DNA of 63,628 nucleotides, the filler included. It is 6 parts of 6 records of this genome, joined end to end, with 100 filler letters (N's around TTAATTAATTAA, not from the genome) between each part and the next. Parts side by side here need not be neighbours in the genome. Positions count along the whole stretch, not along the records: positions 24,096 to 32,389 come from SRR31156797_12356; 5 more parts are not named here. One strand, 5' to 3'. Both the position numbers and the translations under genes were made by a program. Below are positions 18,352 through 48,062 of the stretch, one piece after another. The number at the start of each line of letters is the position of its first letter. The first letter of the stretch is position 1. The notes under the pieces were generated by a model. It was not told the DNA's origin. It made no database searches and saw only the letters and a program-made list of their open reading frames with translations.

Positions 18352-18451
18352 NNNNNNNNNNNNNNNNNNNNNNNNNNNNNNNNNNNNNNNNNNNNTTAAT
18401 TAATTAANNNNNNNNNNNNNNNNNNNNNNNNNNNNNNNNNNNNNNNNNNNN
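18352..18451. other. artificial contig linker
   Basis: N44-TTAATTAATTAA-N44 (stops in all six frames). Confidence 0.98.
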
Positions 18452-23995: not shown

Positions 23996-24095
23996 NNNNN
24001 NNNNNNNNNNNNNNNNNNNNNNNNNNNNNNNNNNNNNNNTTAATTAATTAANNNNNNNNNNNNNNNNNNNNNNNNNNNNNNNNNNNNNNNNNNNN
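23996..24095. other. artificial contig linker
   Basis: N44-TTAATTAATTAA-N44. Confidence 0.98.
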
Positions 24096-24225: not shown

Positions 24226-24804
24226 TTATATAGACTTCATAAATATAGCCAAAGCAAGCCTATCTTTAAGCTCAAGTTTTGTAAAAATACTACTAATATG
24301 CTTCTTTACAGTAACTACTTGAACCCCTAAATACTCAGCTATCTCTTTATTAGAATACCCTTTTGCAACAAGATATGCCACCTCTTGCTCTTTATATGTT
24401 AAAGTCTCCACTTTGCTTTTATCTTGATTTACATCTTTAGATACATCAATCTTTTCAATGATAAAGTTTAATAGATCTGGATATAACCATACATTTCCAC
24501 TAGCAACTGTTAATAGTGCATGTTTTACTACAGGAGATTCTGTGTCTTTACTAATATAACTTTTACACCCAATCTTTATGAGATACGCCCCATATTCAAG
24601 TCTAGGATCACTTGTAAAAACAACTGTTTTTAAGCTCTTTGGTATCTTTAAAAAGTATTCTTCGACTTTATTGATATTCTCAAATCTATCAATATCTAAA
24701 AGTAAAATATCCTCACTTTTAAATGTATCTTGATAGTTTCCATCAACTATTCTTTCCCCTTCAACTTTCTCAAAATAGCTATCATTAGAATCAATATAAA
24801 TCAT
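24226..24804 (-). CDS. NarL/LuxR-type regulator with a shortened receiver domain
   Basis: LLLDID; LTYKEQEV...GYSNKEIA...TVKKHISSIFTKL HTH. Confidence 0.88.
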   Translation of the reverse strand: MIYIDSNDSYFEKVEGERIVDGNYQDTFKSEDILLLDIDRFENINKVEEYFLKIPKSLKTVVFTSDPRLEYGAYLIKIGCKSYISKDTESPVVKHALLTVASGNVWLYPDLLNFIIEKIDVSKDVNQDKSKVETLTYKEQEVAYLVAKGYSNKEIAEYLGVQVVTVKKHISSIFTKLELKDRLALAIFMKSI

Positions 24805-24807
24805 CTT

Positions 24808-26493
24808 TTACTCTCTTTGGGTTGTTTTTAGGATAGGTTTAAGTAAAAATGACATAATTGTTTTTTTACCAACTAAAACATCTGCACTCACTGTCATACC
24901 AACTTTGATCTTGTATTTTTCATCATCTGAGAGATAATTTTTATCAGTCTTTACATAGATTAAAAAATGATCTTCATTGGTATCTTTATCAGTGATTGTA
25001 TCTGGAGAAATGTTCACAATCTTTCCTTCAAGATCTCCATAGATCGAATAATCAAATGCAGTAACTTTTAATTTTACAGGTTGACCAATATGTAACTTTG
25101 CAATCTCTTCTGGCTTGATTTTCACTTCAGCTAACATCTCTTGAGTATCTGGGACAATAGTCATCAATTCAGCTGAAGACTCTACAGAGGTTCCTATAGT
25201 ATGTACAAACAATTCTTTTACTGTACCTCCAACTGGAGATCTTACAATAGTTCTTTGAATAACATCTTCAAGATTTTTCTTTGTTTCTTTTAACCTTAAT
25301 ATCTCTGATACAACTTCATTATATTGAGTAGAGGCTTTGTTTCTAAAATTTAATCGTACCTCTTCAATACTATTTTTAACCTCTTCTTGTTGTGTTTTGA
25401 TCTGGACGATCATCTCTTTTGCACTATTTTGAGCTACTCTAGCATCATTGAGTTCTCGTTCAAGATTTGTCAACTCATATTTTGTAAAAACCTTTTGCTT
25501 CTCAAGCTGTTTTTTTACTTTAAACTCTGCAGCTAAACTATTATAGTTTTTTCGGGAATTCTTATATTTTGCCTCAGCATCTATAAGTTCACTCTCTTTA
25601 GATTTTAATTGTTCTTGAAGTTTTAATACTTTTTGATTTAACTCCTCTTTATTACTAAAAAAAAGTTTTTTCTCTAGTTCTAAAAGCTCTTTATCACACT
25701 CCCCTTCACATGAAATTCTATCTAATGGAATACCTGAAGATTCTGCTTTTAAACGAGCAAGTTTTGTCTCTAACTCCATAATTCTGATACGATTTTCATC
25801 AAGTTTTGTTTGATGTGATAAGGGACTAAACTTTAATAAAACCTGACCTTTTTTTACCACATCTCCCTCAGATACTAAAATATGGGAGACTATTCCCCCT
25901 TCATAATTTCGTATGCTTTGTACCTTTGAAGTTGGAATAAACTGACCTGATCCACGGGCAAGTTCATCAATTTTAAAACTTACCGAATAGATCAAAAACA
26001 AAAAGATAAAAGCAACAACAAGCTTAACTACCATACTTACTTTATTTGAAACAGTATCAAGGACAGCTGCACTTGTAGTAGATACAAACCCTAAAGCACT
26101 TTTATCGATTTTTTCTCTTGAGAACATTTTTACTTGGAGTTTATGAAGTAGTTTTTCATTGGTGATATCTTTAATGATAAAAACAAAGCCACTATGCATC
26201 CCATCGGTAATCATTGGGTGTATGGTTGAGTGGGTTTGTACCTCTTGGGCGTTGATAGTTGTTAGAGTAAGCTCAGTTCCCCACTCTTGTCCATCATTAT
26301 TTTTAACATACTCGCACCCATTATAAAGTTTTGTCTCTGAACTATGTTCAACTATTGTTGTAAAACTTTTCCCTTTTAATGTCTCATTGGAATACCCTAA
26401 AATATCTGAAAGTGCTTTACTGATCTCAACTACTTCAAGATTTTCATCAACTACACAAAAAGGTAAATATTCATAGGCTAATTGACTTATCAT
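24808..26493 (-). CDS. HlyD-family T1SS membrane fusion protein with an N-terminal PAS domain
   Basis: aa 1-115 PAS (VVDENLEV..ISKALSDILGYS..LKGK...IIKDIT), then TM, IDELARGSG, EGGIV, RSPVGGTV and AFDYSIYG. Confidence 0.9.
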   Translation of the reverse strand: MISQLAYEYLPFCVVDENLEVVEISKALSDILGYSNETLKGKSFTTIVEHSSETKLYNGCEYVKNNDGQEWGTELTLTTINAQEVQTHSTIHPMITDGMHSGFVFIIKDITNEKLLHKLQVKMFSREKIDKSALGFVSTTSAAVLDTVSNKVSMVVKLVVAFIFLFLIYSVSFKIDELARGSGQFIPTSKVQSIRNYEGGIVSHILVSEGDVVKKGQVLLKFSPLSHQTKLDENRIRIMELETKLARLKAESSGIPLDRISCEGECDKELLELEKKLFFSNKEELNQKVLKLQEQLKSKESELIDAEAKYKNSRKNYNSLAAEFKVKKQLEKQKVFTKYELTNLERELNDARVAQNSAKEMIVQIKTQQEEVKNSIEEVRLNFRNKASTQYNEVVSEILRLKETKKNLEDVIQRTIVRSPVGGTVKELFVHTIGTSVESSAELMTIVPDTQEMLAEVKIKPEEIAKLHIGQPVKLKVTAFDYSIYGDLEGKIVNISPDTITDKDTNEDHFLIYVKTDKNYLSDDEKYKIKVGMTVSADVLVGKKTIMSFLLKPILKTTQRE

Positions 26494-28661
26494 GCTCGTT
26501 TCCCATTTAATTTATCTAACACCTCTTGTTTTGGACCATCCATAATGATCTTTCCGCTATCCATAACAATAATACGATCAACCAACGCAAGGTCTGCAGG
26601 CGTATGGGTAATTAAAATAAGTGTCTTTTTTGCTAAAACCTCTTTTAAGTTATTAAGAACTCTTTTACTTGTCCCACTATCAAAAGATTTTGTAGGCTCA
26701 TCTAAAATAAATAAAGCACTATCATCAATAACTGTTCTTGCTAATGATATGGCTTGCGCTTGTCCCCCTGATAGGTTTTCCCCTTTTTCTACAATCGGCA
26801 ATTCAAACCCTTGGGGGTGTTTATTGATAAAATCACTTGCACAACTAATTTGAGCTGCACGTAACAACTCTTCATCACTTGCTTTATGTTTTTTAAGTAA
26901 TATATTACTTCGTGCAGTCCCTGAAAAAAGTGAAATATCTTGTGACATATAAGAGATGTTTGACCTTATCTCTACAGGGTCTATCTGTTTTACATCGATT
27001 CCATCAATTAATACTGAACCCTCATCTTGATGATAAAAGCCTAAAAGAAGCTTTTGAAGTGTACTTTTTCCACTTCCCACTTTTCCTAATATTGCTACCT
27101 TTTCACCCTCTTTTATACGAAGATTAATATCAAGTAATTGTTTAAAATCTGTCCCAGGATAGCCAAATGTAACATGCCTAAATTCAATATTTCCTTTAAA
27201 TGCAGGACGTCTAACAAACTGCTTATCACTTGGATGCTCCGCTTCAAGGTTCATAACATTTTCAATCGAATCATATGCAGACCGTACATGCTGATAGTAT
27301 GCGATCATACCAGCAACTTGTCCCATAGGTCCAAGAGCCCTACCAGATAAGATAACACTTGCAATAAGTGCACCAATAGTAAGCTCTTGAGCATCAATCA
27401 TATATGCACCAAAGATAATAAGAAGTACGGTATTTAACTGTGTAACAAATCCTGACACTGTCCCAATTGCAGCAGAAAGTGTTTTGGTTTTAATCCCTTT
27501 TTCTGCGATCTCACCAGTTGCCTCTTCCCATTTATATTGATAAAAACTTAAAGCATTTAAAGATTTTAAAGCTTCAAGGTTTGAAATTGCTTCAATTAAA
27601 ACACCATTTTTCAAACTCGCTGCCCCTGAAGTTGCTTTAACGCTTTCTAACATCTTATCTTTAATACTATACGTATATACTATTACTATCAACATTGAAA
27701 CAACTGTTACCCATACTAAATGACCTGATACAAAATAGATCGTAAAAAGAAAAATAAAAACAAAAGGGATATCAATAAATAAAGTAATCGTCGTTGAAGA
27801 CATAAAACTTCTTAAAGATTCAAACTCTTTTAATACATTTGCAAAAGATCCAATTGGTTTTGGAATGGCAGAAATTTTGAGATCCATTACCTGCTCAAAA
27901 ATAATTGAAGACATAATAATATCTGATTTTTTCCCTGCAATCTCAAGTAAATAGGTCCTTAAAAAGCGAAGACCTAGATCGATCATATAGACGACCACAA
28001 CTCCAAGAGCAAAGATCCAAAGGGTATTAAATGCACCTGTGGGAATAACCCTATCATATACATTCATGGTAAAAATAGGAGTGGCGATCATAAATAAGTT
28101 GATCACCAAAGAAGCTAAAAGAACATCTTTATAGATATATTTAATAGTATGGATCGTATCCCAAAACCAGTGTTTATCTTTATTGTCTATTAGTTTAAAA
28201 TCTTCCGATTCAAAGCGATACTCTTTTTTAAGAAAAAATGCTAACCCAAAATACTCTTTTTTAAGATCTTCAATAGGAACTTTACTAACAATCTCCCCTG
28301 CTTCAGGAAATATCACATAAGCATTTTCTCTTAGTTCATCATAAGATTCAATAATACAAGCATTTACCTCTGTAGGATCATCAGTTTTTAAAAGTATTAT
28401 ACAAGGAAGGATCAAACTACTGATATCTTCTAGATCAATTTTGCTTATTTTAGTTTTGAAACCTGCTTTATGAGCTGCTCTACTAAAAAGTGCTCTTGAA
28501 GAGTTCGCTTTTACTGAGAAAAGCTTAGGTGCAGTTTGCCCCTCTTCAATAGGAAGACCTTCACTTAAAACCTCCCTACTATATCTTTTTCCATGAAGTT
28601 TGGTAAAAACTACTAATGCATCAAGAATTGATCCTGGAATATATCTTCTATATTGTCCCAA
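26490..28661 (-). CDS. type I secretion ABC permease/ATPase (LapB/LssB-like, C39-like domain)
   Basis: PIFTMNVYDRV, GKVGSGKST, LSGGQ and LDEPT. Confidence 0.93.
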   Translation of the reverse strand: MGQYRRYIPGSILDALVVFTKLHGKRYSREVLSEGLPIEEGQTAPKLFSVKANSSRALFSRAAHKAGFKTKISKIDLEDISSLILPCIILLKTDDPTEVNACIIESYDELRENAYVIFPEAGEIVSKVPIEDLKKEYFGLAFFLKKEYRFESEDFKLIDNKDKHWFWDTIHTIKYIYKDVLLASLVINLFMIATPIFTMNVYDRVIPTGAFNTLWIFALGVVVVYMIDLGLRFLRTYLLEIAGKKSDIIMSSIIFEQVMDLKISAIPKPIGSFANVLKEFESLRSFMSSTTITLFIDIPFVFIFLFTIYFVSGHLVWVTVVSMLIVIVYTYSIKDKMLESVKATSGAASLKNGVLIEAISNLEALKSLNALSFYQYKWEEATGEIAEKGIKTKTLSAAIGTVSGFVTQLNTVLLIIFGAYMIDAQELTIGALIASVILSGRALGPMGQVAGMIAYYQHVRSAYDSIENVMNLEAEHPSDKQFVRRPAFKGNIEFRHVTFGYPGTDFKQLLDINLRIKEGEKVAILGKVGSGKSTLQKLLLGFYHQDEGSVLIDGIDVKQIDPVEIRSNISYMSQDISLFSGTARSNILLKKHKASDEELLRAAQISCASDFINKHPQGFELPIVEKGENLSGGQAQAISLARTVIDDSALFILDEPTKSFDSGTSKRVLNNLKEVLAKKTLILITHTPADLALVDRIIVMDSGKIIMDGPKQEVLDKLNGKRA

Positions 28662-28663
28662 TG

Positions 28664-30460
28664 TTATTCCTTAGTATTTTCTTCTTTTAAAATATGTTTT
28701 TTTAAGACACCTATCTCAGCTAAAATATTATATTTGATAGTTTTAAGACTATAAGTGTTTTCTATTTGTCTTTTTTTTGCATTATACAGATCATCTACTG
28801 CATCTAGTAATGCTTCTGCATCGATTTTTGCAAACTTATAATCATATTTAGCTCCAAGATATGATTCTTCTCTTTTTTCAACAAGCTCTTTAATAAGTGA
28901 TGCTTTTGTATTTTCAAGATCCATTTGATGATACGCAGTTCTTAGTTTAAAATCTAGATCTCTTTTGATCTCCTCTTTTTTCTCTAATTGTTGTTTATAA
29001 TCTGAAAGTTTTTGTCTATATTCTGCACTATCTTTTCCACCTCTGTAAAGATTAAATGATGCTTCTAAGGCCACAGAGCTTTCTTCAAAATTATTTTTAG
29101 ATGGAATATTATTTGTGTACTCTTCATCTGATAATTTTGTCTTTCCTACAAGATCAATAGTTGGGTAAAATCCACTTTTAGATTGTGCTATTTTCTCTTG
29201 ATACATTTGAATATTTGCATCCATCTCTTTAATTGATGGTGATTTTGTAAAGATCTCTTCAAAAGCGATGATCTTATTTGTCAAATACTCACTTTTAGGA
29301 TCAAGTTTTTCAAAATAGTTTGTATCATCACTTTCAAGGTCAATATATTTTTGTAATTGAATGATGCTGTCTTTATAAGCCATTTTCATCTCTTCTAAAT
29401 TGATCTTTTGCTGAGTATATCTACTTTGAACTTTTGCATAATTGTTTAAAGTTACTAAACCACTTTGAAATTTGATATCCTCTTTTTGTACCCAAGTCTT
29501 ATAGTTATCTAGGTTACTATATGCAAGATCAAGTATCTCTTTTTGTTTTTGAATAGAAGTATATGCTTCGATTACAGATTTAATAAGATCTATTTCGACT
29601 TGCTCTGTTAAGTATCTATTTGATTCAATGCTATATTGATCGATATTATTTTGAGTAAGATCTTTGAATCCATTAAAAATGTTATAACGTAGAGTAAGAT
29701 CTACTGATTGTGTGTTATCAAAGTTATCATCTTCAGATTCAAAATATTTTGTATAGTTATAGTTTAAATCCAGTGTTGGATAAAATGAAGATTGATTTTT
29801 TCTTAATTCTTCTTGTAAGGACTGGATTAAAAAATACTTTTCTTTTAAACTTGGATAGTTATTCATAAGCTGTTGAACATATGATGCAAGAGTTATCACC
29901 TTATCGTCTGACTTTTGATAACTTGTTCGTAATTGAATCTCCATCTCAACTCTTCTTGAAAGTCTTTTGATCTCATCACCCTCTTCATCTTGAACCACTT
30001 CTGAAGATGATCGCCCAATGGCAAAAAAATTTGTTTCGATCCAGTTTTGTTCTGGTTTTGAGAAACGTTTTGAAAGCTCTTTTACGTATTCTAATACATT
30101 GTCTGCTCTTTCTTGAGAAATAGAGAGGTTCCTAAGATATTTATCCTCAGTTGTTTTCCCTTTTGAGCTATCAGAAGAGGCATGTCCCATAATAGAAACT
30201 TTTTTTACATAGTCTTTGTACTCAATCAATATCTTTAAGATGTCATGTAAGTTATGTTGTAGATTTGAAGGTATCTTTCTATTTACATCTTGATAATAAT
30301 CCACAATTCTTAAAGAGTGTGTTTCCTCCTCATACTCTGCATTATAATACTGTAACTTTGAAAGCAACTCATTTGTAGTATCAGAATACATACTATCAGA
30401 CTTTGCAAATAGATAACAACTCATCATCACTACTACTGTAAATATCAACTTTAACTTCAT
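28664..30460 (-). CDS. TolC-family outer-membrane protein with an N-terminal OmpA/MotB-like domain
   Basis: Signal peptide; GHASS...NLSISQERADNV...SRRVEM; then OEP repeats FYPTLDL, YNIFNG, FYPTIDL and FNLYRGG. Confidence 0.87.
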   Translation of the reverse strand: MKLKLIFTVVVMMSCYLFAKSDSMYSDTTNELLSKLQYYNAEYEEETHSLRIVDYYQDVNRKIPSNLQHNLHDILKILIEYKDYVKKVSIMGHASSDSSKGKTTEDKYLRNLSISQERADNVLEYVKELSKRFSKPEQNWIETNFFAIGRSSSEVVQDEEGDEIKRLSRRVEMEIQLRTSYQKSDDKVITLASYVQQLMNNYPSLKEKYFLIQSLQEELRKNQSSFYPTLDLNYNYTKYFESEDDNFDNTQSVDLTLRYNIFNGFKDLTQNNIDQYSIESNRYLTEQVEIDLIKSVIEAYTSIQKQKEILDLAYSNLDNYKTWVQKEDIKFQSGLVTLNNYAKVQSRYTQQKINLEEMKMAYKDSIIQLQKYIDLESDDTNYFEKLDPKSEYLTNKIIAFEEIFTKSPSIKEMDANIQMYQEKIAQSKSGFYPTIDLVGKTKLSDEEYTNNIPSKNNFEESSVALEASFNLYRGGKDSAEYRQKLSDYKQQLEKKEEIKRDLDFKLRTAYHQMDLENTKASLIKELVEKREESYLGAKYDYKFAKIDAEALLDAVDDLYNAKKRQIENTYSLKTIKYNILAEIGVLKKHILKEENTKE

Positions 30461-30470
30461 CTTTTTCTCC

Positions 30471-31919
30471 TTATTGGTTTAATTGCTCTAATGATTTATA
30501 ATTTGGAAGATCTTGTGTCATATCAACTAATGCGATAATGATCAATCTCTCACTTACATATTTTGCATATGTTAACTCATTGAATTTTATAATAAAATGG
30601 TGTGGACTTCCATTAATCGACATCACTGTTTTATATAGTCTTTTTGGATTATTGAGTAGATAATCGATCCAAAACTCACCCTCAATATACTGCTCCCAAA
30701 TATAATTTGGAGCATCAAACTTTTCAAATAATTCACTTACACATCTATGTTGTGATTTAAATCCATCAAAATCACCAAATCTATTAAAAAATCCCATAAA
30801 TCGTTTATTTGCACTTGTTATCTCATATCCATTATGCATGATCATAAGGTTTGGCTGCATATTAAAAAGATTTTCAAGTTTCTTTTCATTGTAATCTAAC
30901 TGATCAGATTTTTCTCTTAAATCATCATTTTCAAGATTTAAGATCTTATTATCCCTATCAAGTCTTTTCATTGTATTTTTTACGTATAAAGCATATACAG
31001 CAAAAGCAAAAAATAAACTTACTGCTATAATATATGCAATATACTGAAAAAGGATCTTTTGCTCAAATGGAGTACGAATAGCTATAAACTTTTTAAATAC
31101 AATTATGTTAGCAATAAGTTTATCATCTATACTTACGGGATATTTTATTGTTAAGTATTCTGTAGAAAACCTATTATTATAGGGAGTCTCCCATTCTTTA
31201 AAATAGTTTCCAATACCTTGTTGTCCAATAAGTTTTAAAAGGTAAGGATCACTATTTTTATTGGCTACATAATAATCATCTATAAATTTTTTTGTTCGAG
31301 AATGATCTATATCTATCTTTTTAGAATCTTCTTTATTAAGGATCACCACAGCATCTAATCCATCTTCTCTTAACATATTAACAAGAGTATCGAAATTTGA
31401 TTGAAATACTACGCTACCAATATTTTTGCCATAATGGAGGATTGGGGATATATCATAAAATGAAACCCCTATTTTTGAAGCATTAAAACCTGTTCTAAAA
31501 ACAGTATCATTTTTCAAAACTTCAAGATCCCCATGGTACTGAAAAATCTCTCTATTTCTATCTTTGATCGCAAGATAATCACTTTTTAAATATTGTGAAA
31601 GGTCAAGTTTTTTTAATAAGGAGTTTATATCAAGTTGAGATCTGTCTCGTTCTAAAAGAGCCTCTTTAATATTTTGATTACAAGACAAACTTTTCCCCAT
31701 AAGTCTTAATTGATCAAATTTATTATGTAAATAAGTATCTAGTTTATTATTCGTATCTATAGCAAATTGCATATAGATATGTTCTTTATATTCTTTGATA
31801 TCTTTTTCATAAAAACTCTTGGCAATGTAAATAAAACTAACTATTAAAGCTAATGTAAGTACTTGATACAAGAATTTGTATGGTATAAAATCTTTAAAAC
31901 TGAATTTTTTATTTTGCAT
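30471..31919 (-). CDS. membrane sensor: TM, Cache-like periplasmic domain, TM, coiled coil, PAS; no output domain
   Basis: Two hydrophobic helices; cytoplasmic PAS (LFNMQPNLMIM..ANKRFMGFF..HRCVSELF...VDMT) followed by the stop 12 aa later. Confidence 0.8.
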   Translation of the reverse strand: MQNKKFSFKDFIPYKFLYQVLTLALIVSFIYIAKSFYEKDIKEYKEHIYMQFAIDTNNKLDTYLHNKFDQLRLMGKSLSCNQNIKEALLERDRSQLDINSLLKKLDLSQYLKSDYLAIKDRNREIFQYHGDLEVLKNDTVFRTGFNASKIGVSFYDISPILHYGKNIGSVVFQSNFDTLVNMLREDGLDAVVILNKEDSKKIDIDHSRTKKFIDDYYVANKNSDPYLLKLIGQQGIGNYFKEWETPYNNRFSTEYLTIKYPVSIDDKLIANIIVFKKFIAIRTPFEQKILFQYIAYIIAVSLFFAFAVYALYVKNTMKRLDRDNKILNLENDDLREKSDQLDYNEKKLENLFNMQPNLMIMHNGYEITSANKRFMGFFNRFGDFDGFKSQHRCVSELFEKFDAPNYIWEQYIEGEFWIDYLLNNPKRLYKTVMSINGSPHHFIIKFNELTYAKYVSERLIIIALVDMTQDLPNYKSLEQLNQ

Positions 31920-32023
31920 TAAACTACCGAACACTTCATTTAGAGTATCCGATAGTCTACATCAAAAGTTCTTAAAAGTAACTTTTTTATAACTTTTTTA
32001 TTTATACATTATTCTTACATTAT

Positions 32024-32389: not shown

Positions 32390-32489
32390 NNNNNNNNNNN
32401 NNNNNNNNNNNNNNNNNNNNNNNNNNNNNNNNNTTAATTAATTAANNNNNNNNNNNNNNNNNNNNNNNNNNNNNNNNNNNNNNNNNNNN
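32390..32489. other. artificial contig linker
   Basis: N44-TTAATTAATTAA-N44. Confidence 0.98.
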
Positions 32490-41559: not shown

Positions 41560-41659
41560 NNNNNNNNNNNNNNNNNNNNNNNNNNNNNNNNNNNNNNNNN
41601 NNNTTAATTAATTAANNNNNNNNNNNNNNNNNNNNNNNNNNNNNNNNNNNNNNNNNNNN
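41560..41659. other. artificial contig linker
   Basis: N44-TTAATTAATTAA-N44. Confidence 0.98.
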
Positions 41660-47962: not shown

Positions 47963-48062
47963 NNNNNNNNNNNNNNNNNNNNNNNNNNNNNNNNNNNNNN
48001 NNNNNNTTAATTAATTAANNNNNNNNNNNNNNNNNNNNNNNNNNNNNNNNNNNNNNNNNNNN
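47963..48062. other. artificial contig linker
   Basis: N44-TTAATTAATTAA-N44. Confidence 0.98.

Follow-up and report, generated by a model that had tools for sequence, protein, structure and literature searches.

A HlyD-family type I secretion adaptor with an N-terminal PAS domain in Campylobacterota

The type I secretion adaptor HlyD has, at its N-terminus, a cytosolic domain of small size, as set out in a preprint (bioRxiv 10.1101/2025.05.27.656419), and a small cytoplasmic domain of this kind has been reported to enable direct substrate sensing (PMC13328181), in a review that never mentions PAS. The mechanism by which so short a HlyD-type tail detects its substrate and sets off TolC recruitment is still a matter of inquiry in the type I secretion field. 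A further point of comparison is DvhD of Desulfovibrio vulgaris, which its preprint describes as a CACHE-PAS-degenerate HD-GYP protein and proposes as a LapD analogue (bioRxiv 10.1101/2023.11.22.568322). Here we describe a gene for a 561-aa (amino acid) type I secretion adaptor that carries an N-terminal PAS domain (24808..26493, minus strand; hereafter PAS-HlyD), found in the window, a 63,628-nucleotide stretch of DNA composed of six contigs that are joined by runs of N around a TTAATTAATTAA linker. The PAS-HlyD contig spans 24096-32389 (8.3 kb, ~30% guanine-cytosine (GC) content), and every gene on it lies on the minus strand. In this protein a conserved, folded sensor domain borne by a rigid helix takes the place of the tail, and such a natural variant offers a handle on the signalling path in question.

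Architecture and integrity of the fusion

Residues 153-560 of PAS-HlyD match the NCBIfam family of type I HlyD adaptors, TIGR01843 (E 4.6e-99; 332.2 bits against a cut-off of 208.65; profile positions 5-417 of 422), and the periplasmic adaptor body is encoded by 24814..25968 (minus strand). In a profile search, the adaptor also matched HlyD (8dck_C, 1.5e-40, profile positions 167-576) and LipC (5nen), while no solved adaptor chain in that search matched the PAS part. By its sequence, PAS-HlyD is a HlyD-family type I secretion periplasmic adaptor, with its ABC (ATP-binding cassette) and TolC partners encoded by adjacent, co-oriented genes. The body also contains a CxxxC pair in its periplasmic helical region (residues 262-266; 25696-25710, minus strand), with C262 and C266 invariant in the 37 sequences of the near-clade alignment and absent from the distant relatives shown.

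Ahead of this body, residues 11-111 (26161..26463, minus strand) match Pfam PAS_9 (PF13426; E 1.5e-10, 41.7 bits against a gathering cut-off of 27), the Pfam PAS fold family PF00989 (29.3 bits against 22.6) and NCBIfam TIGR00229, sensory_box (40 bits against 22.9), so that PAS and HlyD families both score above cut-off within one open reading frame (ORF). The initial annotation had recognised PAS hallmarks in the N-terminus (VVDENLEVVEISKALSDILGYS, LKGK, EWGTEL and FIIKDIT); all of them are present in the translation, and the fold is recovered by hidden Markov models and by structure prediction alike. An AlphaFold2 model of residues 1-150, based on 43 aligned sequences, predicts a five-strand PAS topology (strands 12-16, 20-24, 71-78, 84-96 and 99-111, with helices in 26-65) at a predicted local distance difference test score (pLDDT) of about 90 (88-94 across residues 11-110). 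Searched with Foldseek, this model gave 500 or more PDB matches with E <= 0.001; the best of them are all PAS domains, and many PAS chains are matched with a probability of 1.00. The top PAS matches were CPS_1291 (0.78-0.80 in TM-score normalised to the target, TMt), Aer, EcDOS/DosP, NifL, LOV and FixL, and single-domain targets such as 3lyx, 1vb6 and 2gj3 gave TMt values of 0.68-0.80. In addition, a profile built from seven PAS regions taken from the loci matched solved sensor PAS domains at E values from 2.5e-8 to 1e-4, including the 3EWK sensor (2.5e-8), the second PAS domain of DosP (6e-7), Aer (1.4e-6) and YtvA (8e-5).

The PAS sheet is followed in the AlphaFold2 model by a single long helix, residues 113-149 (26047..26157, minus strand), predicted with lower confidence than the PAS core and assigned as helix by DSSP. 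This connector is amphipathic, with heptad periodicity (its hydrophobic positions show period-7 and period-3.6 signals), and it bears the conserved stretches LLHKLQVKM and STTSAAVLDT. It leads into a transmembrane anchor at approximately residues 152-175 (25969..26040, minus strand), where the Kyte-Doolittle hydropathy reaches its maximum of 2.5 (residues 155-173). No signal peptide or earlier hydrophobic segment was identified in PAS-HlyD, and no other segment exceeds 1.6 on the same scale. As the anchor is the sole hydrophobic segment, the PAS domain and the N-terminus are therefore predicted to be cytoplasmic. This arrangement agrees with the initial annotation, which had placed the PAS domain at the cytoplasmic end of HlyD, in frame with and N-terminal to a short helix and a normal LapC/LssD-like start with a transmembrane segment (its motifs FVSTTSAAVL and IDELARGSG are both found in the translation). 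The same annotation held that HlyD proteins normally have a short cytoplasmic tail, and indeed only 24-77 residues precede the membrane region in the 11 closest PAS-less adaptors of the same class.

Within the cytoplasmic part, the 37 near-clade sequences share invariant PAS residues D16, L19, S25, K55, G59, C60, E61, Y62, W71, G72, T73, I91, G102 and F103, which concentrate in helix F (YNGCEYVKN) and at the point where strand G begins (WGTE). These two elements line the ligand pocket of PAS domains. The connector region is more conserved than the PAS core in the near clade, followed among the cytoplasmic parts by helix F and strand G, and from the connector to the start of the anchor the invariant residues are L116, L119, Q120, K122, S141, A143, T147, S149, K151 and S153. 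Many relatives have a further N-terminal helical extension of 20-85 residues. The distant PAS-HlyD proteins keep W71, S25, G102 and F103.

A chimeric contig, frameshift-joined genes or a wrong start could give the appearance of a fusion between two separate proteins, an ordinary HlyD and a small PAS protein, and the source bin gives some cause for this concern. The six contigs of the window (N spacers at 18352-18451, 23996-24095, 32390-32489, 41560-41659 and 47963-48062) differ strongly in GC content, from ~28% to 58% per 2 kb, and with such a spread the bin probably mixes organisms. Against this, the ORF is uninterrupted, and its start is well placed: the plus-strand bases at 26490-26493 are tcat, which confirms the overlap proposed earlier between the minus-strand ATG of PAS-HlyD and the TGA of the ABC gene (ATGA, 4 nt). 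A 1715-nt contig from a marine-sediment run of a different study covers 25600-26454 (residues 14-298) with 12 substitutions and 0 gaps, and so bridges the PAS domain, the connector and the membrane helix; a run that yielded an identical 8294-nt contig is the probable source and was not counted as independent, and runs X3 and X4 gave short or diverged pieces only. A 99% identical ORF is also present on a 14,963-nt contig (L001) in another assembly, the record of an uncultured Campylobacterales metagenome-assembled genome, and the fusion ORF was found in 6/6 of the genome loci fetched. Furthermore, the same architecture recurs in 56 protein clusters of 561-645 aa, some on contigs of 1.4-2.8 Mb, and the alignment remains continuous across PAS domain, connector and membrane helix even in distant relatives. 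We consider an artefact extremely improbable, and a misassembly or split gene, or a stop between the two parts, is rejected on the strength of the 56 clusters, the second assembly record and the independent contig. At one locus, L006:6981-8106, the match falls into two pieces (residues 9-112 and 324-561) ~100 nt apart, the middle of the gene being seemingly missing or masked.

Distribution and descent of PAS-bearing adaptors

The 56 clusters with the PAS-HlyD architecture come from Campylobacterota and were obtained by a word-seeded search with residues 1-150 (E <= 0.001, 293 candidates). Every one of them combines PF13426 with the adaptor families; across the PAS region their identity is 44-99%. 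Public records call them simply "HlyD family type I secretion periplasmic adaptor subunit" or "adhesin transport system membrane fusion protein". The architecture is rare among adaptors of this type. We sampled 301 genomes evenly across the class that surrounds an Arcobacteraceae relative. Of these, 118 have a match to the adaptor body (residues 121-561) and only four to the N-terminal 190 residues; the remaining 114 of the 118 are without any PAS-bearing adaptor. The open frames of the HlyD-type matches are mostly 424-503 aa long, and lengths of 586-610 aa occur only at the four PAS-bearing places.

An exhaustive phmmer search with residues 1-190 against 1.84 billion representatives gave 186 matches at E <= 0.001. 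Among the 150 of these that were listed, eight span the PAS domain through the membrane helix, and six of the eight (P0058, P0060, P0061, P0066, P0089 and P0095) are PAS_9+HlyD_3 proteins by Pfam, with 23-31% identity over residues 1-150. These six distant proteins, as well as the protein of the distant-clade locus L011, all score above the TIGR01843 cut-off. P0060, a metagenome representative of 789 aa, combines a GAF domain, a PAS domain and a HlyD type I secretion adaptor, and so illustrates the stacking of sensors on the adaptor tail beyond one PAS domain. By Pfam, P0074 (442 aa) has PAS families only and P0125 is a PAS histidine kinase. ESM Atlas clusters of 588-607 aa from Pseudomonadota and Thermodesulfobacteriota, also PAS-bearing (scores 0.89-0.90), are noted here as a lead only.

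A maximum-likelihood tree of the part following the anchor was computed for 27 rows, namely 16 PAS-bearing and 11 PAS-less adaptors whose loci were returned, and thus covers a minority both of the 56 clusters and of the genome sample's PAS-less matches. All PAS-bearing rows lie on one side of a single branch with support 95/94. The tree is compatible with one old fusion kept by selection, and falls short of proving a single origin.

A full-text literature search, with subscription journals outside its coverage, returned no title or abstract on a PAS-bearing type I secretion adaptor. We regard PAS-HlyD as a familiar machine to which a new and conserved control module has been added, with the reservation that an earlier description may exist.

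Neighbouring genes and putative substrates

The genes of the contig follow one another, in the direction of transcription, as the 3' end of an acidic ORF, a gene for a 487-aa sensor, a TolC-family gene, an ABC exporter gene, PAS-HlyD and a LuxR-type gene. From the 487-aa gene to the LuxR gene the intergenic spacings are 10, 2, -4 (an overlap) and 3 nt, which is the layout of one operon as judged from the gene positions. The ABC permease/ATPase (723 aa; 26490..28661, minus strand), whose stop overlaps the PAS-HlyD start, is of the LssB type (TIGR03375, 832.6 bits against 693.1) and has a weakly C39-like N-terminal domain (Peptidase_C39, E 0.086). At 77-82% identity in five related loci (L002-L006), it is the most conserved protein of the cassette. 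The 598-aa TolC-family channel (28664..30460, minus strand; OEP 3.7e-47) has an N-terminal OmpA-like peptidoglycan-binding domain, ZorB2-like over residues 25-176 and with an OmpA match (9.3e-05) below cut-off, followed by the TolC part (residues 190-591). In the distant clade, the TolC protein of L011 (L011:7869-9677, minus strand) has a C-terminal SPOR domain in place of the N-terminal OmpA/ZorB2-like domain.

The 487-aa protein (30471..31934, minus strand) is a membrane sensor without an output domain. Two transmembrane segments (~20-40 and 293-320) flank a periplasmic dCache_3 domain (28.5 bits against 25.7), and a 42-residue helix then leads to a PAS-like C-terminal domain (AlphaFold2 pLDDT 84; Foldseek match to the FixL PAS domain at 2.4e-4), with nothing after it. 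Invariant positions of this protein fall mainly in its cytoplasmic portion and include H367, H396, C398, H445 and H446, and these histidine and cysteine residues hint at a metal or cofactor site. We found 61 homologues, largely in Campylobacterota and mostly named "hypothetical". Long forms of the dCache sensor (650-890 aa) have C-terminal extensions without a Pfam family; in Arcobacteraceae, for example, homologues of 886-890 aa at L002:3281-5953 and L004:3110-5770 (both plus strand) bear a C-terminal extension of ~390 residues without a Pfam or NCBIfam match.

Three nucleotides after the PAS-HlyD stop begins the gene for a 192-aa LuxR/GerE-type regulator (24226..24804, minus strand; GerE 8.2e-14) with a degenerate, receiver-like N-domain. 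The protein has no Pfam Response_reg match at E <= 1, none of its 32 homologues carries a precomputed Response_reg (PF00072) assignment, and in an alignment of 29 sequences the residues at the acidic pocket and at the phospho-acceptor differ (D, S, E, H). With these positions variable, control by phosphorylation is unlikely and a protein partner or ligand would be needed; the protein does not fit the two-component response regulators of the NarL/FixJ type, in which the receiver acidic pocket and acceptor aspartate would be conserved.

The order dCache-PAS, TolC, ABC, PAS-HlyD, LuxR is kept in 6/6 near-clade loci. The constant neighbour is the LuxR gene, which lies directly downstream of PAS-HlyD in 9/9 loci. 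The ABC and TolC genes are divergent in the distant loci L011 and L012 and were not found within 14 kb in L013. At the latter (L013:1964-6133), PAS-HlyD and LuxR stand alone in the 14 kb fetched, with no ABC or TolC gene, and adjoin a DDE transposase gene.

With respect to the substrate, the C-terminal 121 aa of an extremely D/E-rich protein are encoded at the head of the contig (32027..32389, minus strand), the 5' part being cut off by the contig end. No family was assigned to this partial ORF, and no match to it was found in three related genomes; it is a possible candidate for the secretion substrate. Related loci carry larger proteins. A 1299-aa LapA-domain protein (1.9e-25) is encoded near the cassette at L011, and the protein encoded just upstream of the cassette at L005 is acidic, at least 1191 aa long, and contains an Ig-like domain as well as a Ca_tandemer repeat that scores below threshold. 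No adhesin-type gene was found within 10 kb at L002 or L004. At L005, a 210-aa protein-kinase-like ORF (L005:3609-4241, plus strand; Pkinase 8.7e-09) is located between the adhesin-like gene and the dCache sensor gene. The LssB-type ABC partner and the LapA-domain or Ig-like adhesins at related loci fit the LapC/LssD-like label that PAS-HlyD had been given initially.

LapG-like proteases (PF06035, Peptidase_C93) are present in 5/5 of the PAS-HlyD genomes searched. In the three genomes whose neighbourhoods were compared (G002, G180 and G271), the PF06035 matches adjoin PAS-less adaptor paralogues, and no LapD or LapG gene was found at the PAS-HlyD cassette or anywhere on the contig in the window. 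We therefore rejected a canonical Lap system as the reading of this cassette, since the LapG-like genes that could be placed adjoin other adaptors, and their position beside PAS-less paralogues suggests that the PAS-HlyD cassette is a second, differently controlled adhesin secretion system. In this second system, control appears to have moved onto the PAS domain of the adaptor and the LuxR-type regulator.

Possible roles and comparison with known systems

From the observed architecture, conservation, rarity and operon setting we infer each step of the following mechanism. In the reading that we favour, tentatively and at somewhat less than an even chance, PAS-HlyD is the periplasmic adaptor of an LssB/LapB-type system for a giant adhesin-like protein, and the system is sensor-gated through the PAS domain that replaces the usual short tail. 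The premise is that the cytoplasmic tail of HlyD touches the ABC transporter and is required for relaying the "substrate engaged" state to TolC recruitment; given the role of the HlyD cytosolic domain in substrate sensing, the PAS domain would therefore sit where the adaptor is controlled. Secretion would become conditional through a cytoplasmic cue that alters the state of the PAS domain. Candidates for this cue are a small ligand or redox state within the pocket that the invariant YNGCEYVKN...WGTE elements line. In the near clade the part might instead fall to the dCache sensor encoded next door, which has no output domain and whose cytoplasmic PAS-like domain sits on a helix near the length of the connector (42 vs 37 residues). 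The connector helix would relay this alteration to the membrane helix and on to the ABC/adaptor interface, where adaptor-ABC engagement or TolC recruitment would be switched on or off and secretion permitted or blocked. The same circuit probably includes the LuxR-type pseudo-receiver regulator, which would set transcription of the system and possibly dock on the PAS domain.

Several observations weigh against such gating. The dCache gene is missing at 3/3 distant-clade loci, and the dCache sensor is therefore not a general input; likewise, Cys60 and the helix-F motif, invariant in the near clade, are missing from the distant PAS-HlyD proteins, which makes one shared ligand unlikely. No ligand or cofactor was recognised, identity to the solved PAS domains found by Foldseek is 9-19%, and a phmmer search of residues 1-150 against PDB sequences gave no match at E <= 1. 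A flavin, haem or LOV assignment was not adopted, as no ligating residues could be mapped. PAS domains can, moreover, act purely as oligomerisation modules. It is in this last direction that a constitutive role would lie, in which the PAS domain and connector pair or stabilise adaptor protomers, or bind the C39-like or nucleotide-binding domains of the ABC exporter, without any sensing. The heptad-like periodicity of the connector and its conservation above that of the PAS core would suit such a role, as would the additional N-terminal helices of many relatives, the common tendency of PAS domains to dimerise and the lack of a recognised cofactor motif. However, HlyD-type adaptors occur without any PAS adaptor in 114 of the 118 sampled genomes that have them, which indicates that assembly does not need PAS. 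The closest structures are those of sensor PAS domains that bind cofactors (Aer, DosP, NifL, LOV), P0060 has an added GAF domain, another small-molecule sensor, and sensor and regulator genes surround the cassette. On balance, we regard a purely structural module as quite unlikely.

The main rival to gating is a transcription switch coupled to secretion, in which the PAS domain would be mainly a membrane docking site for the LuxR-type regulator, held or released according to whether the machine is idle or busy, so that transcription of the adhesin system would follow its secretion status. The logic would be comparable to that of MalK holding MalT. The position of the LuxR gene immediately after PAS-HlyD at every one of the nine loci, including the three distant ones that have no dCache gene, speaks for a partnership of this kind, as do the missing Response_reg family among the 32 LuxR homologues and the variable pocket positions in the 29 aligned sequences. 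Yet it is common for a regulator to be encoded next to a system that it governs and never contacts, and the strong conservation of the pocket-lining helix of the PAS domain suggests more than a docking surface; docking as the main function is unlikely, if less so than a purely structural role. Gating by the PAS domain and docking of the LuxR protein are mutually compatible. Combined, they would have the PAS domain read a redox or metabolite cue, or the state of the dCache sensor, gate adhesin export and simultaneously hold or release the LuxR regulator, with one membrane complex switching both. As a whole, this combination is doubtful, though somewhat more probable than docking alone.

If the combined reading were true, the cassette would represent a post-translational alternative to LapD/LapG control that is independent of cyclic dimeric GMP, as well as the first case of ligand-gated type I secretion. 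The PAS-bearing variant in itself suggests that the secretion of giant adhesins, and hence attachment and biofilm behaviour, can be controlled at the machine itself, beyond transcription or LapD/LapG proteolysis. Should the domain prove ligand-gated, the design might also be borrowed for switchable secretion systems.

Compared with E. coli HlyD in the HlyB-HlyD-TolC system (PDB 8DCK, 7SGR and 5C21), PAS-HlyD belongs to the same adaptor family and shares the single N-terminal transmembrane segment and the predicted cytoplasmic N-terminus, and the machine likewise includes an ABC exporter with a C39-like N-domain and a TolC-family channel. Whereas HlyD has a small cytosolic domain only, PAS-HlyD has ~150 residues consisting of the PAS domain and connector helix. 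Unlike the HlyD system, the PAS-HlyD operon also includes a TolC-type gene, whose product bears an OmpA-like domain, together with genes for a sensor and a regulator. With the LapC/LapB/LapE system of Pseudomonas fluorescens and the LssB/LssD-type systems, the cassette shares the LssB-type ABC exporter, and LapA-type or Ig-like adhesins are encoded beside related cassettes; the Joint Genome Institute (JGI) name for relatives is "adhesin transport system membrane fusion protein". In contrast to the Lap system, the PAS-HlyD cassette is without LapD or LapG.

The neighbouring 487-aa protein differs from DvhD, as the latter is described in the preprint, in that its chain ends with the PAS-like domain and lacks an HD-GYP or any other output, and in that it has no LapG-like partner adjacent. 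As in DvhD, a periplasmic Cache-type domain is combined with a PAS-like domain in the cytoplasm, and the gene adjoins those of an adhesin type I secretion system. With regard to the PAS domain of the adaptor, the fold is common to Aer (8DIK), DosP/EcDOS (1VB6, 9CLO), NifL (2GJ3), 3EWK and LOV, and the C-terminal helix leaves the sheet as it does in LOV and other PAS signalling helices, although the sequence is only 9-19% identical to theirs and no cofactor-ligating residues can be assigned. In PAS-HlyD the place of a kinase, cyclase or DNA-binding domain as output is taken by the membrane helix of a secretion adaptor.

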